Assembly: GCA_964427855.1 (NCBI GenBank)
Contig: CAYRVH010000001.1
Location: forward strand, 21,649-85,648
Length of the DNA: 64,000 nt
Direction of reading: 5' to 3'
From: an uncultured Syntrophaceae bacterium
Lineage (GTDB): Bacteria > Desulfobacterota > Desulfomonilia > Desulfomonilales > Desulfomonilaceae
Shown here: positions 3,197 through 36,901 of the stretch, in pieces
How positions within the stretch are numbered: position 1 is the first letter of the stretch
Layout: every line of letters starts with the position of its first letter
Position numbers and translations under genes: made by a program
Notes under the pieces: model-generated
Databases searched by the model: none
Told to the model about the DNA's origin: nothing
What the model saw: only the letters and a program-made list of their open reading frames with translations

Positions 3197-4242
3197 GGCA
3201 CTACCACCTCTTCGCCTGGCTTCAAGCCAGATATGACTTCCACTCTCTCGTTAGACAAAGAGCGCCCTGTCTTCACGTGCCGAACTTTGACTTGCCCATC
3301 GTCAAAAACATTGACTGATTCCAATTGGCCGATGATTCGGATGGCTGCACGCGGCACCGCTATAGCCTCAGAAGCATGGGTGTCAAAGGTCATGGTTCCG
3401 TACAACCCAGGCGTCAGCCCTGTTGTTTGGTTCAAGGGGATCTTCACTGTGACGGTTCGTGTTTTCTCGTCGCGCTGGGGCACGACCTCTCGGATCTTCG
3501 ATGTCTCTTTAAGGCCGACAGAGGGGACATCGACCTTCACAGAAGTCCCCTCTTTGAGAAATGGCGCATACTGTTCCCCGGCGGATGCCACCAACTCAAG
3601 CGAATCAGGGCGATACACGCTCATAAGAAAGCGTCCTGGACTGGCCAAGTCCCCAGTATTTACACCCCTCTCGCCTATCACGCCTGAAAATGGCGCAGTG
3701 ACAGTACCGTAGGAAAGATTTGTCTTCGCCTCATCCAAGGCAGCTTTGGCCCTGTTTTCAGCAGCCTGGGCCATCTCGTACTTTGCCAGCGCGTCGTCGT
3801 AATCTTTTTTGGCCACCGACTGCTTTTCGTAAAGGACTTTGAATCGTTCAAAGTCGTTCTTGGCCTTGATGAGATCCGCCCGGGCGCTCTCCAGAGTAGC
3901 CGCCGCCTGAGCCTCCTTCTCCGCCAAATCCTTGGTATCGATTTTGAGGAGGACATCGCCTCGCTTCACATGGTGCCCCGCATCGACATTGATCTCGATG
4001 ATATATCCATTTATGCGACTGGACACGCGTGCAACGTCTCGCGCTATTACCGTTCCGGAGACCGTGACTTCTCCCTGAACGGTAATTTTCTCAGCCTGGA
4101 CAGTTTTCGGCGGCGACGCCGGCGCGGTTGGAGTCGCCCGCCCGCCGGAGATTTTGTGGTGGAAGCCTCCCTGCATCCATATAAGACTCACCACCAGTAC
4201 TGCGAAGGCAACAATAGCGAGCAGCAACGTTTTTTTGTTCAT
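3193..4242 (-). CDS. Efflux-pump periplasmic adaptor (HlyD/MFP family)
   Basis: 349 aa: N-terminal TM anchor, lipoyl-like hairpin (SRINGYIIEINVDAGHHVKRGDVLLKID), long coiled-coil (AEKEAQAAATLESARADLIKAK...), and beta-barrel C-terminus (VEVISGLKPGEEVV). Confidence 0.85.
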   Translation of the reverse strand: MNKKTLLLAIVAFAVLVVSLIWMQGGFHHKISGGRATPTAPASPPKTVQAEKITVQGEVTVSGTVIARDVARVSSRINGYIIEINVDAGHHVKRGDVLLKIDTKDLAEKEAQAAATLESARADLIKAKNDFERFKVLYEKQSVAKKDYDDALAKYEMAQAAENRAKAALDEAKTNLSYGTVTAPFSGVIGERGVNTGDLASPGRFLMSVYRPDSLELVASAGEQYAPFLKEGTSVKVDVPSVGLKETSKIREVVPQRDEKTRTVTVKIPLNQTTGLTPGLYGTMTFDTHASEAIAVPRAAIRIIGQLESVNVFDDGQVKVRHVKTGRSLSNERVEVISGLKPGEEVVVP

Positions 4243-35230: not shown

Positions 35231-36124
35231 TCAGACGAGGAGCGCTTTTGTCTGAGACATGACGCTCACCTTTTTCATGAGCTGGGCAAAGTCTTCCGGA
35301 GACAAGGACTGTTGACCATCGCACAGCGCGGTTTCCGGCGAGCAATGGACTTCTACCATCAGACCGTCAGCCCCCACAGCGATAGCAGCCAGGGATAACG
35401 GCTCGACGTACCGCCGTATTCCCACCGCATGACTGGGATCTACAATCACGGGCAAATGGGTTTTTTCTTTCAAAACGCACACGGCGCTGAGGTCGAGTGT
35501 GTTTCTCGTGGCGGTTTCAAACGTGCGTATGCCCCTTTCGCAGAGGATGACCTGGGAGTTGCCCCCAGCCAGGATGTACTCCGCTGAATAGAGAAACTCG
35601 TCTATGGTCGTCATCAACCCTCTCTTCAAAAGGACTGGTTTTGGACTTTTGCCCACTCGCTTGAGCAACGTAAAATTTTGGACATTTCTTGCCCCGATCT
35701 GCAGGATGTCTGCACATTCTTCAACTCCGCCGACCTGGGTTGTATCCATCACCTCCGTGACGACAGGCATGGCGGTCAATTCTTTCGCAAGGCTCAAGAG
35801 CTTCAGTCCTTCCTCCCCCAATCCTTGGAAGCTGTAGGGGCTGGTCCTGGGCTTAAACGCACCGCCTCGCAAGACGCTTGCGCCGGCTTCTTTGACTGCC
35901 AACGCGGTGTGAACGAGCTGCTGAAGCGATTCAACGGAACAAGGCCCCGCTATGACGGTGAAAGTCCCGCCGCCTATGATGGCGTCCCCGACCCGAATCA
36001 CCGTGTCGTACCGCTGATATTCACGACTGACAAATCCTTGACGAGGAGGGGCGGATGCGCGATCGCGCACCGTAATCGGTACCGGATGATCACCTTCTGT
36101 CTTTGAGATGGTCGGTTCCCTCAT
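35231..36124 (-). CDS. aroF: 3-deoxy-7-phosphoheptulonate (DAHP) synthase, type I-beta
   Basis: MREPTISK...[12 protein letters not shown]...[19 protein letters not shown]...IGARNVQNF...VDPSH. ATG 36124 with GGGAG upstream. The track ORF's 28 extra codons overlap a terminator. Confidence 0.9.
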
Positions 36125-36180
36125 TGGAGATGCTCCCTTTACACAAAATGGGCCTTGGGTTGCGTCGCGCCCAAGGCCCA

Positions 36181-36226
36181 GAAACAAAAAAGGCCACGGG
36201 CGCTTCACCGATCGCCCATGGCCTTT
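36181..36226 (-). terminator. Intrinsic terminator / candidate attenuator about 56 nt upstream of aroF
   Basis: Minus strand reads AAAGGCCAUGGGCG-loop-CGCCCGUGGCCUUU followed by UUUUGUUUC (arms 36213-36226 / 36188-36201). Confidence 0.65.
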
Positions 36227-36253
36227 GTACTTACTTCACGTATTTCTTACGCT

Positions 36254-36340
36254 TTACAACCCTCCGGTCATGGGCTGGCCGCCGAACGAATAGATCCTTC
36301 GAAAGTAATAATATGACTTGTGTATGACGCTGCGTTTCAT
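36254..36340 (-). CDS. Candidate 28-aa aromatic-rich leader peptide
   Basis: Own translation: MKRSVIHKSYYYFRRIYSFGGQPMTGGL*, with the YYYF run at 36302-36313. Lies between a good promoter and the terminator. No SD upstream. Confidence 0.4.
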   Translation of the reverse strand: MKRSVIHKSYYYFRRIYSFGGQPMTGGL

Positions 36341-36401
36341 TTTGGCGCTAAAGATTGTTTCTTGACCCACGACTTCTTTTCGTGCCCATCGTAGTGTGGA
36401 C

Positions 36402-36430
36402 TTTATACCGAATCGCTGGGGCCTTGTCAA
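36402..36430 (-). promoter_or_regulatory. Near-consensus sigma70 promoter (TTGACA-17-TATAAA) for the aroF leader
   Basis: rc of 36425-36430 is TTGACA. A 17-nt spacer follows, and rc of 36402-36407 is TATAAA. Confidence 0.55.
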
Positions 36431-36442
36431 TCGCTTTTTCGG

Positions 36443-36901
36443 CTATGCCTTGCCATTTGCTTCCTCTTCCCTATCGCAGTAGTGTGCAAACCAGAGCAGA
36501 GCGAGGCAGTACGATCGCCAGCCAAAGCCTGCGATGACCCCACGACAGACATCAGAGAGGAGCGAATGTCGCCGAAATTCCTCTCGACCGTGGGGATTCG
36601 TGAGGTGGACCTCGAGGACTGGTACGCCGCAGGCCGCTATCGCATCCCGTATTGCGATACTCGTATGGGTGTATGCCCCTGCATTCAATATTACCCCTCG
36701 GGCTTTGGTTCCGGCGGTCTGAATTATAGAGACGAGCTCTCCTTCGATATTCGATTGAAAAAAGTCGATATCGAGCTCGAGGCCTTTGGCCATTTCCGCC
36801 AGATCCGCCTCGATCTCAGGCAGAGTTTTCGTCCCATACAGCGCCGGCTCACGTGTGCCGAGCATGTTGAGGTTTGGTCCGTTGACGACAAATAACTTCA
36901 T
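36443..36901 (-). CDS. aroQ: 3-dehydroquinate dehydratase, type II
   Basis: MKLFVVNGPNLNMLGTREPALYG...NAGAYTHTSIAIRDA...EVHLTNPHGRE. ATG 36901 overlaps the aroC stop (ATGA). The 83 upstream codons in the track ORF are spurious. Confidence 0.9.
   Translation of the reverse strand: MKLFVVNGPNLNMLGTREPALYGTKTLPEIEADLAEMAKGLELDIDFFQSNIEGELVSIIQTAGTKARGVILNAGAYTHTSIAIRDAIAACGVPVLEVHLTNPHGREEFRRHSLLSDVCRGVIAGFGWRSYCLALLWFAHYCDREEEANGKA

Follow-up and report, generated by a model that had tools for sequence, protein, structure and literature searches.

The 64-kb stretch of DNA analysed here (the window) carries on its minus strand a run of aromatic amino acid genes in the order aroA (from 41597), aroE, an aroK/aroB fusion, aroC, aroQ, a gap, aroF, pheA and tyrA. 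We argue that the gap, which extends over 318 nt from the aroQ stop codon (36445-36443) to the aroF ATG (36124), very probably contains a ribosome-mediated (leader-peptide) transcription attenuator that would gate aroF-pheA-tyrA. This reading holds because of the comparison with relatives; the window sequence alone, in which two terminators are evident and a switch is not, would be insufficient. The original prediction for this DNA had read the gap as a case of classical attenuation by Tyr and Phe codons, and this reading is now supported by 32 related loci, by 13 compensatory pairs in the terminators, by covariation between the antiterminator strands and by linkage of the element to aroF. The coordinates that it gave for the promoter, a 28-codon open reading frame (ORF), the YYYF run, the hairpin, the 9-of-10 pairing, a mini-ORF and the gap all match on the minus strand, and its gene identities agree with profile matches. 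For the full function of this particular copy, our confidence is somewhat less than for the family.

The element, as predicted, is made up of the following parts.

36430-36402, minus strand: leader promoter predicted from sequence, with TTGACA (36430-36425), a 17-nt spacer and TATAAA (36407-36402)
36370-36254, minus strand: leader ORF of 38 codons from GTG 36370, MGQETIFSAKMKRSVIHKSYYYFRRIYSFGGQPMTGGL, with the stop codon UAA at 36256-36254
36340-36254, minus strand: the shorter ORF of the original prediction, MKRSVIHKSYYYFRRIYSFGGQPMTGGL, 28 codons from the in-frame internal ATG 36340
36313-36284, minus strand: aromatic codons UAU UAU UAC UUU (YYYF, 36313-36302), UAU (36292-36290) and UUC (36286-36284)
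36275-36266, minus strand: segment A, the putative antiterminator 5' strand, GCCCAUGACC, pairing with the 5' arm of T1
36265-36260, minus strand: GGAGG(G), a motif resembling a Shine-Dalgarno sequence, located by eye 3 nt upstream of the leader stop codon
36226-36181, minus strand: terminator T1, a 14-bp stem and a U-tract, with the 5' arm at 36226-36213, the loop at 36212-36203 and the 3' arm at 36202-36189
36179-36141, minus strand: terminator T2, GGGCCUUGGG (36179-36170) paired with CCCAAGGCCC (36159-36150), then AUUUUGUGU
36139-33053, minus strand: aroF-pheA-tyrA, the putatively regulated genes, including the aroF Shine-Dalgarno sequence

In the model that we propose, transcripts would either originate from the TTGACA/TATAAA promoter (36430-36402) or arrive by read-through from aroA...aroQ, and would carry the 38-codon (or 28-codon) leader with its central run of Tyr and Phe codons. 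The supply of charged tRNA could then have two outcomes. First, with an ample supply of charged Tyr- and Phe-tRNA, the ribosome would reach the stop codon at 36256-36254 and cover segment A (36275-36266), the arms of T1 would pair, and RNA polymerase would terminate at the U-tract ending at 36181, with T2 catching what leaks through T1. Second, if charged aromatic tRNA is scarce, the ribosome would stall at YYYF (36313-36302) and leave segment A exposed, to pair with the 5' arm of T1 once this has been made and thus to block T1; the freed 3' arm of T1 would in turn pair with the 5' arm of T2, T2 would be blocked as well, and polymerase would enter aroF. The parts of this switch exist and are conserved together with aroF in 32 loci, and the helices of both states are backed by pairing statistics. 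That the leader is translated, and from which start, that ribosomes stall on it according to tRNA charging, that the hairpins terminate transcription and that T1 relays to T2 is what we infer from these sequences.

Conservation of the element upstream of aroF

Relatives were gathered by an AroF search of one genome per species and by a metagenome scan, which added more loci, with few very close relatives among the matches listed. The AroF search places the window among the Desulfomonilaceae (Thermodesulfobacteriota), the best match being 90% identical. Upstream of aroF, 32 distinct loci of the Thermodesulfobacteriota, all close relatives among them, share the layout of the window, that is promoter, leader ORF, segment A, T1 and usually T2, and alignment A1 covers these 32 loci between the aromatic run and T2, both included. 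The leader ORF spans 22-42 codons in this family, it contains 6-9 Phe, Tyr or Trp residues within a stretch of 10 (7-9 in the relatives), and its 3' end is a GC-rich segment complementary to the 5' arm of T1. Stretches with at least 7 such residues in 10 were found in 47 of 154 aroF upstream regions, compared with 6 of 1078 control segments taken from the same loci and none of the 154 reverse complements, an enrichment of about 50-fold over background. The aromatic run is kept while the other peptide and nucleotide sequence diverges (YYYFWRFYWF, YFYFWRFYYF, RFFYFSYYYF, NFGWWFYYYF, FTNWYWFYYF), and a gene call for the leader was seen at a single locus only. The alignment of relatives that had been proposed as a check, looking for conserved aromatic codons and compensatory changes, thus gave a positive result. 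The window leader has 4 Tyr and 2 Phe codons in 10 and no Trp codon; among control 600-nt segments, 3.5% contain a stretch with six aromatic residues in 10.

In 31 of the 32 relatives the aromatic codons are preceded, at a distance that is conserved, by a TTGACA box with a spacer of 17-18 nt; the remaining locus is truncated by the edge of its contig. A consensus promoter and terminator scanner missed both the window promoter, whose TATAAA lacks the required final T, and T1, with its 10-nt loop, so that its silence is uninformative. The leader frame is open further upstream than ATG 36340, and the likely start in the window, judging by homology, is GTG 36370, which corresponds to the Shine-Dalgarno-preceded ATG-GGU at which the leaders of L002-L004, L081 and L082 begin; the window leader then has 38 amino acids, as do those of L002 and L003. 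Most relatives start at an ATG behind an AAGGA or GAGG Shine-Dalgarno sequence (the close relatives at ATG-GGU behind AAGGA); the window offers either GTG 36370 behind a weak one, GAAAAGAAG, with a 2-nt spacer, or ATG 36340 with none. The earlier caveat that the leader lacks a Shine-Dalgarno sequence is therefore largely answered by the conserved upstream start in relatives, although the window's own sequence is still weak. The 13-codon mini-ORF (36389-36348, minus strand), which had been suggested to feed ribosomes into the leader, is common only to the window and its closest relative, L001, is absent from the rest of the family and differs in frame from the leader, and we reject it in this role.

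Both hairpins are predicted by their statistics to be real intrinsic terminators. T1, with a U6-G-U3 tract that ends at 36181, folds with -26.1 kcal/mol (z = -4.8), a value that none of 200 shuffles attains. This is the terminator of the original prediction, which overlooked T2, a hairpin at 36179-36150 with the U-tract UUUUGUGU to 36141 that lies between T1 and aroF, just ahead of the aroF Shine-Dalgarno sequence, and folds with -23.1 kcal/mol (z = -3.9; no shuffle as good). T2 occurs in about 29 of the 32 relatives, not being evident in L010, L011 and L086, and segment D (36179-36168), which forms its 5' arm, has additional complementarity to the 3' arm of T1 (segment C). Across the 32 sequences, compensatory changes affect 7 of 15 pairs in T1 and 6 of 10 in T2, so that 13 pairs overall have changed on both sides. 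The state with T1 and T2 formed pairs 87.7% of alignment cells, compared with 25-52% in slid registers, none of 500 shuffles equals the real alignment on four of five measures, and RNAalifold recovers T1 and T2 from alignment A1.

T1 and T2 lie about 220-300 nt past the aroQ stop codon, where they would end the transcripts of the aroA-aroE-aroKB-aroC-aroQ operon anyway, and taken alone the window has neither an aromatic content nor an antiterminator that is statistically compelling. They could perceivably be just the tandem terminators of that operon, with aroF served by an unregulated promoter or by read-through and with an ORF that arose by chance; the original prediction had itself raised the simple operon terminator as a caveat. 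However, the candidate promoter stands upstream of the hairpins, so that its own transcripts would be stopped too, and neither the aromatic enrichment across the aroF upstream regions nor the covariation of the 3' end of the ORF with the terminator arm fits with a chance ORF. The arrangement aroC-aroQ, leader, aroF-pheA-tyrA is conserved in Desulfomonilaceae- and Desulfarculaceae-type loci, yet in at least 15 loci without an upstream aroQ, aroF is still preceded by the whole set of aromatic-run ORF, T1 and T2. At Syntrophales loci the leader follows a sigma-54 response regulator (e.g. L012) and precedes aroF-aroB-pheA, and in L005, a metagenome-assembled genome of Desulfomonile sp. (3480-4000), the order is trpE-trpG, leader-T1-T2, aroF-trpD-trpC, which suggests a tryptophan-dedicated DAHP (3-deoxy-D-arabino-heptulosonate 7-phosphate) synthase copy with its own internal attenuator. 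Because the element follows aroF to loci with a sigma-54 regulator or trpG upstream, termination of the aroQ transcripts fails as the sole explanation, and we consider it hardly credible in this role. That the hairpins would stop aroQ transcripts as well does not conflict with an attenuator located inside a supraoperon.

The proposed switch and its alternative helices

The antiterminator postulated by the attenuation model is formed by segment A and segment B, the 5' arm of T1. In the window GCCCAUGACC (36275-36266) pairs at 9 of 10 positions with GGCCAUGGGC (36223-36214), and there is a second register in which UCGUUCGGCGGCC (36289-36277) likewise pairs with the 5' arm of T1. In alignment A1 the A:B helix corresponds to columns 48-58 with 116-126; 83.5% of its cells are paired over the 32 sequences, and it covaries at 3 of 11 positions, 48/126, 50/124 (GC in 12, UA in 5, CG in 3) and 55/119 (GC in 19, AU in 6, GU in 6). 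When terminator arms were swapped, for 28 of the 32 sequences A paired better with its own arm than with those of other clades (mean -25.0 versus -20.6 kcal/mol). The complete antiterminated state, A:B together with C:D, has 82.7% of cells paired compared with 28-48% in slid registers, with 5 pairs changed on both sides, and the C:D duplex of the window, at -25.5 kcal/mol, rivals T1 itself.

Staged folding, in which the transcript ends at successive points, gave three results. If the transcript stops after B and A is left free, the minimum free energy (MFE) structure is A:B in 30 of 32 sequences. If it stops after D, A:B plus C:D is the MFE structure in 19 of 32, a state in which no terminator is possible. 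If A through the stop codon is masked to mimic a terminating ribosome, 30 of 32 sequences form T1. For the window, C:D forms spontaneously once A:B has been imposed, and the resulting state lies 2.6 kcal/mol above the T1 state once D has been transcribed. The predicted ribosome positions are consistent with the model: with the stop codon (36256-36254) in the A site, the footprint would extend over about 36274-36244 and cover segment A, while a ribosome stalled at YYYF would reach only to about 36289.

At the level of the family, the element therefore combines an ORF rich in end-product codons, a terminator before the first gene and a mutually exclusive antiterminator, the last of these not being significant in the window alone. 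The classical four-segment layout with a 1:2 hairpin, typical of trp, phe and his leaders and not obligatory, was not found; the design here sets A:B against B:C and extends this by C:D against D:E. As far as the predicted structures go, it exceeds the textbook in three respects: one strand of the antiterminator is part of the leader ORF and a 1:2 hairpin is missing, a possible C:D relay links two terminators in tandem, and there is the conserved GGAGG.

This last motif (alignment A1 columns about 66-72) is seen by eye 2-4 nt ahead of the leader stop codon in about 27 of the 32 relatives, and it is, on the evidence of the alignment, conserved as RNA rather than as peptide, because the reading frames differ among relatives. 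RNAalifold on the 32 sequences gives it no conserved pairing partner, and no start codon was found downstream of it. As an anti-antiterminator, a local hairpin joining segment A to GGAGG was considered and rejected, as it is paired at 6 of 7 positions in L014 and poor in the window and L006, and RNAalifold finds no consensus for it in the 32 sequences. The motif may help to hold the terminating ribosome over the antiterminator strand.

The GGAGG motif also bears on whether the sensor is a translated leader at all. Pairs of terminators and antiterminators are common to all attenuation mechanisms, a conserved motif with no assigned partner points to a constraint on the RNA beyond what a leader peptide would impose, and no 1:2 hairpin was found, all of which would suit an attenuator controlled by a protein or ligand (T-box-like, TRAP-like or a riboswitch), with aromatic codons that are incidental or secondary. 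Against this, the Phe/Tyr/Trp class of residues is conserved in one frame together with a Shine-Dalgarno sequence and start codon, which is the signature of a translated sensor, and no conserved structured domain lies upstream of segment A. Nor does any Rfam family, T-box and riboswitches included, reach its gathering threshold anywhere in the window, and a permissive Rfam search of 35900-36700 gave no match of T-box or riboswitch type; its weak matches (Phe_leader, mir-187, sot2652, ACA64) are noise that picks up the terminator hairpin only. We accordingly regard control by a protein or ligand as very improbable and retain the translated leader as the sensor.

Several results nevertheless weigh against the attenuation model. 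The count of covarying pairs for A:B plus C:D does not rise above 500 shuffles, and covariation is modest. The modest support at A:B reflects further constraints on both strands, coding in A and the role of terminator arm in B. In the window, 10-19% of dinucleotide shuffles do as well as the A:B duplex (-18.5 kcal/mol), and folds of the antiterminator region that omit the 3' arm of T1 are no better than shuffled sequence (z 0 to -1.1). Full-length equilibrium folds favour T1 plus T2 in 22 of 32 sequences, and the model thus depends on co-transcriptional kinetics; as equilibrium folding of the full length is uninformative for a kinetic switch, we set it aside as a test and used the staged folds. 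Finally, there is no conserved pause hairpin or 1:2 hairpin, RNAalifold showing no conserved pairing upstream of T1 in the 32 sequences. As a consequence, an untranslated leader would form A:B and allow read-through, unlike in the classical trp design.

The copy in the window and its neighbourhood

The other points on that side of the balance concern the window copy, which could be partly decayed. Its leader is the weakest of the family, with 6 of 10 residues aromatic (the lowest density in its clade), no Trp codon and, at either start, the poor initiation signals described above, and in cognate A:B energy the copy ranks with the three weakest of the 32 sequences. Compared with L001, to which the gap is 89% identical, three aromatic codons of the leader are gone, namely both Trp codons (UGG to CGA and UGG to UCG) and one for Phe (UUU to AUC). 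The locus has been rearranged as well, the trp genes after tyrA being reduced to a trpD fragment. One could thus argue that the family is a real attenuator and that this copy is degenerating, with weak or no regulation and with hairpins that act mostly as constitutive terminators or leaky barriers. However, T1, T2, segment A and the spacer are nearly invariant between the window and L001, which argues for purifying selection, 4 Tyr and 2 Phe codons remain, YYYF among them, and the strength of the C:D relay is intact. Loss of Trp codons would moreover be expected if the operon no longer makes tryptophan. A degenerating copy therefore seems to us improbable, and we favour a working attenuator in the window as in its relatives.

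Two remnants bear on the loss of tryptophan genes.

32805-32479, minus strand: trpD fragment directly after tyrA, covering residues 32-140, 64% identical to TrpD of L005
41623-41727, minus strand: trpG-like remnant of 35 residues directly before aroA

Relatives have an intact trpD-trpC after tyrA and an intact trpE-trpG before aroA, and the genome of the window appears to have lost trp genes from an ancestral aromatic supraoperon. The coincidence of Trp-codon loss with trp-gene loss is suggestive, as a single case; several relatives with Trp-free leaders retain trpD-trpC downstream.

The window also contains a sibling of the element upstream of aroA, which the original prediction did not mention and which leaves its account of the locus incomplete.

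41974-41736, minus strand: putative sibling attenuator before aroA, with TTGACA at 41974-41969
41903-41799, minus strand: sibling leader of 34 codons, MKRAMTDNPAASSWYFYWRAQLSLAVWSALCGAL, with WYFYW at 41864-41850
41773-41746, minus strand: sibling terminator, with a U-tract to 41736

Its antiterminator duplex, at -25.7 kcal/mol compared with -17.9 +/- 2.7 kcal/mol for shuffles (0.5% as good), is significant on the window alone. The sibling element is conserved in L161-L165, identified via AroA homologues, with leaders that end in ...VWSAL and a GGCCCACCG-type terminator, and it shows one compensatory change between leader and arm, GCGGUG:CACCGC in the window and L162 and ACGGUG:CACCGU in L161 and L163-L165. 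In relatives it usually stands before trpE-trpG-aroA; in the two nearest of them, as in the window, it stands directly before aroA. When the whole window was scanned, the sites of aroF and aroA proved to be the only two intergenic ones at which a terminator follows an aromatic mini-ORF; two other combinations of an aromatic frame and a terminator (19229, minus strand, and 48174, plus strand) were dismissed as chance, being out of frame inside long ORFs.

The genes placed under the proposed control, and the aroF Shine-Dalgarno sequence, are the following.

36139-36133, minus strand: aroF Shine-Dalgarno sequence AAGGGAG, read from the sequence
36124-35231, minus strand: aroF, type I-beta DAHP synthase, NCBIfam match above the curated cut-off
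34989-33913, minus strand: pheA, chorismate mutase/prephenate dehydratase, NCBIfam match above the curated cut-off
33916-33053, minus strand: tyrA, prephenate dehydrogenase, strong NCBIfam matches that are below their cut-offs

A longer aroF ORF from GTG 36208 was rejected, as it would cross the T1 loop and the whole of T2, and as conservation with L001 begins at residue 1, encoded by the ATG at 36124 that lies behind AAGGGAG. Around the aroF ribosome-binding site, GGGAGCAUCUCC (36125-36139, minus strand), the MFE fold shows a small hairpin in which part of the Shine-Dalgarno sequence would be hidden; the sequence of this hairpin differs in L001. As to the enzyme, AroF of L012 carries an N-terminal ferredoxin-like regulatory domain (PF18152), and other Syntrophales loci (L012-L021) are similarly extended at the N-terminus; AroF of the window (297 amino acids) is without this domain. 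The Desulfomonile-like and Syntrophales lineages may thus combine attenuation with different allosteric control of AroF.

Wider occurrence and comparison with known systems

Outside the family of 32 sequences, 26 of 28 loci with an aromatic-rich ORF before aroF have a hairpin and a U-run 4-57 nt past the stop codon. This wider survey scored the ORF and a terminator-like hairpin, antiterminators having been analysed in the 32-sequence family, and its loci (L028, L033-L035, L042-L046, L049, L057, L058, L062, L066, L073, L107, L134, L136, L154 and others) come from Clostridia, Desulfurellales and Desulfobacterales among others, before type I-beta DAHP synthase genes. The leaders range from Phe and Tyr only to dominated by Trp; those of the Desulfobacterales are rich in Trp (KQKYYWRWWW) and stand beside a divergent trpE-trpG. 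It is tempting to generalize that mixed Phe/Tyr/Trp leaders before type I-beta DAHP synthase genes form a widespread, uncatalogued class of attenuators, present at about 40% of sampled aroF loci in Thermodesulfobacteriota, Desulfurellales and Clostridia, whose codon mix tunes each copy to its operon (rich in Trp by trp genes, Tyr and Phe only where trp was lost), and whose four-arm relay in Desulfomonile and Syntrophus opens two tandem terminators from one stalled ribosome. We put this forward tentatively, as a proposal that falls somewhat short of even odds.

Collectively, these findings draw a regulatory map in which one Phe/Tyr/Trp leader would stand before (trpE-trpG-)aroA...aroQ and a second before aroF-pheA-tyrA(-trpD-trpC), in organisms of the Desulfomonile and Syntrophus type that matter for dehalogenation, syntrophy and sulfur cycling, and we found no account of aromatic amino acid regulation in Desulfomonile, Syntrophus and related uncultured anaerobes in the searchable literature. 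They suggest that Corynebacterium is no special case and that anaerobes commonly place the committed step, DAHP synthase, under leader-peptide control. The leaders are missing from Rfam, where a model would improve annotation, and the relay of two terminators, if true, would combine low leak with full inducibility in a compact form that could be reused in synthetic biology.

Leader-peptide attenuation is textbook knowledge for trp, pheA, his and related operons, and what we describe is a known mechanism for which no description was found for aroF in this bacterial group; the find is probably widespread and mechanistically expected. Full-text literature yielded no description of the element in Desulfomonile, Syntrophus or relatives, a search that left subscription literature largely outside, so that an earlier account is possible. 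Leader attenuators of delta-proteobacterial aromatic or trp genes find no mention in Rodionov et al. 2004, a paper on delta-proteobacterial regulons that omits aromatic amino acids. The original prediction knew of no such leader for a DAHP synthase operon in this kind of organism, and this stands for the combination of gene and bacterial group; for the enzyme as such there is a precedent in aroR-aroF of Corynebacterium glutamicum.

In that system, for which the logic has been established by experiment, the aroR leader (Phe-Tyr-Phe) lies upstream of aroF, and transcription rises on ribosome stalling under Phe limitation (Neshat et al. 2014, cited in PMC11802643). Both cases place a short Phe/Tyr leader before an operon led by DAHP synthase and share the enzyme step and the sensing principle, a likeness that is one of functional analogy only. 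They differ in that C. glutamicum belongs to the Actinomycetota, that its motif has 3 residues compared with 6-9 in 10 here, and that the accessible part of its description has no tandem terminator (PMC11802643).

Two further reports concern predicted elements. The uORFC-13-1 family is a predicted upstream ORF with promoter, ribosome-binding site and one or more Phe codons, followed by an intrinsic terminator, found exclusively before aroF of Acholeplasma (Brewer et al. 2021; PMC8632094). It resembles our element as a predicted Phe-codon ORF with a terminator before the DAHP synthase gene; compared by its description, it differs in being restricted to Acholeplasma and unassigned environmental sequences and in having a U-run with at least one Phe rather than a long mixed aromatic run (PMC8632094). 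Table 7 of Song, Bonner and Jensen 2005, drawn from Merino's database, lists putative attenuators before aromatic supraoperons, including that of Desulfovibrio vulgaris (PMC1173090). Here too a terminator and antiterminator precede aromatic supraoperons, one of them delta-proteobacterial and several standing before type I-beta DAHP synthase in other phyla. In contrast to our model, the list is based on structure only, giving no leader peptide or sensing mechanism; it does not cover relatives of Desulfomonile and Syntrophus, and the D. vulgaris operon begins with aroA'/aroB' (the alternative dehydroquinate route) and not with DAHP synthase (PMC1173090).

The closest parallels in design are pheL-pheA (RF01859), trpL and hisL, with which the element shares a leader rich in end-product codons, a terminator before the first gene and an exclusive antiterminator that would depend on ribosome position. 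It is not a homologue of the first of these, since the Rfam model RF01859 Phe_leader scores 17.1 bits against the window (gathering score 55, E = 5.1). Members of that class respond to one amino acid, whereas Tyr and Phe codons (and Trp codons in relatives) are mixed here, and our element would differ from them further by an antiterminator 5' strand inside the 3' end of the leader, by two tandem terminators and by dispensing with a conserved 1:2 hairpin. As in enterobacterial pheL-pheA, pheA is among the genes that would be regulated, but the first of them here encodes a type I-beta DAHP synthase.

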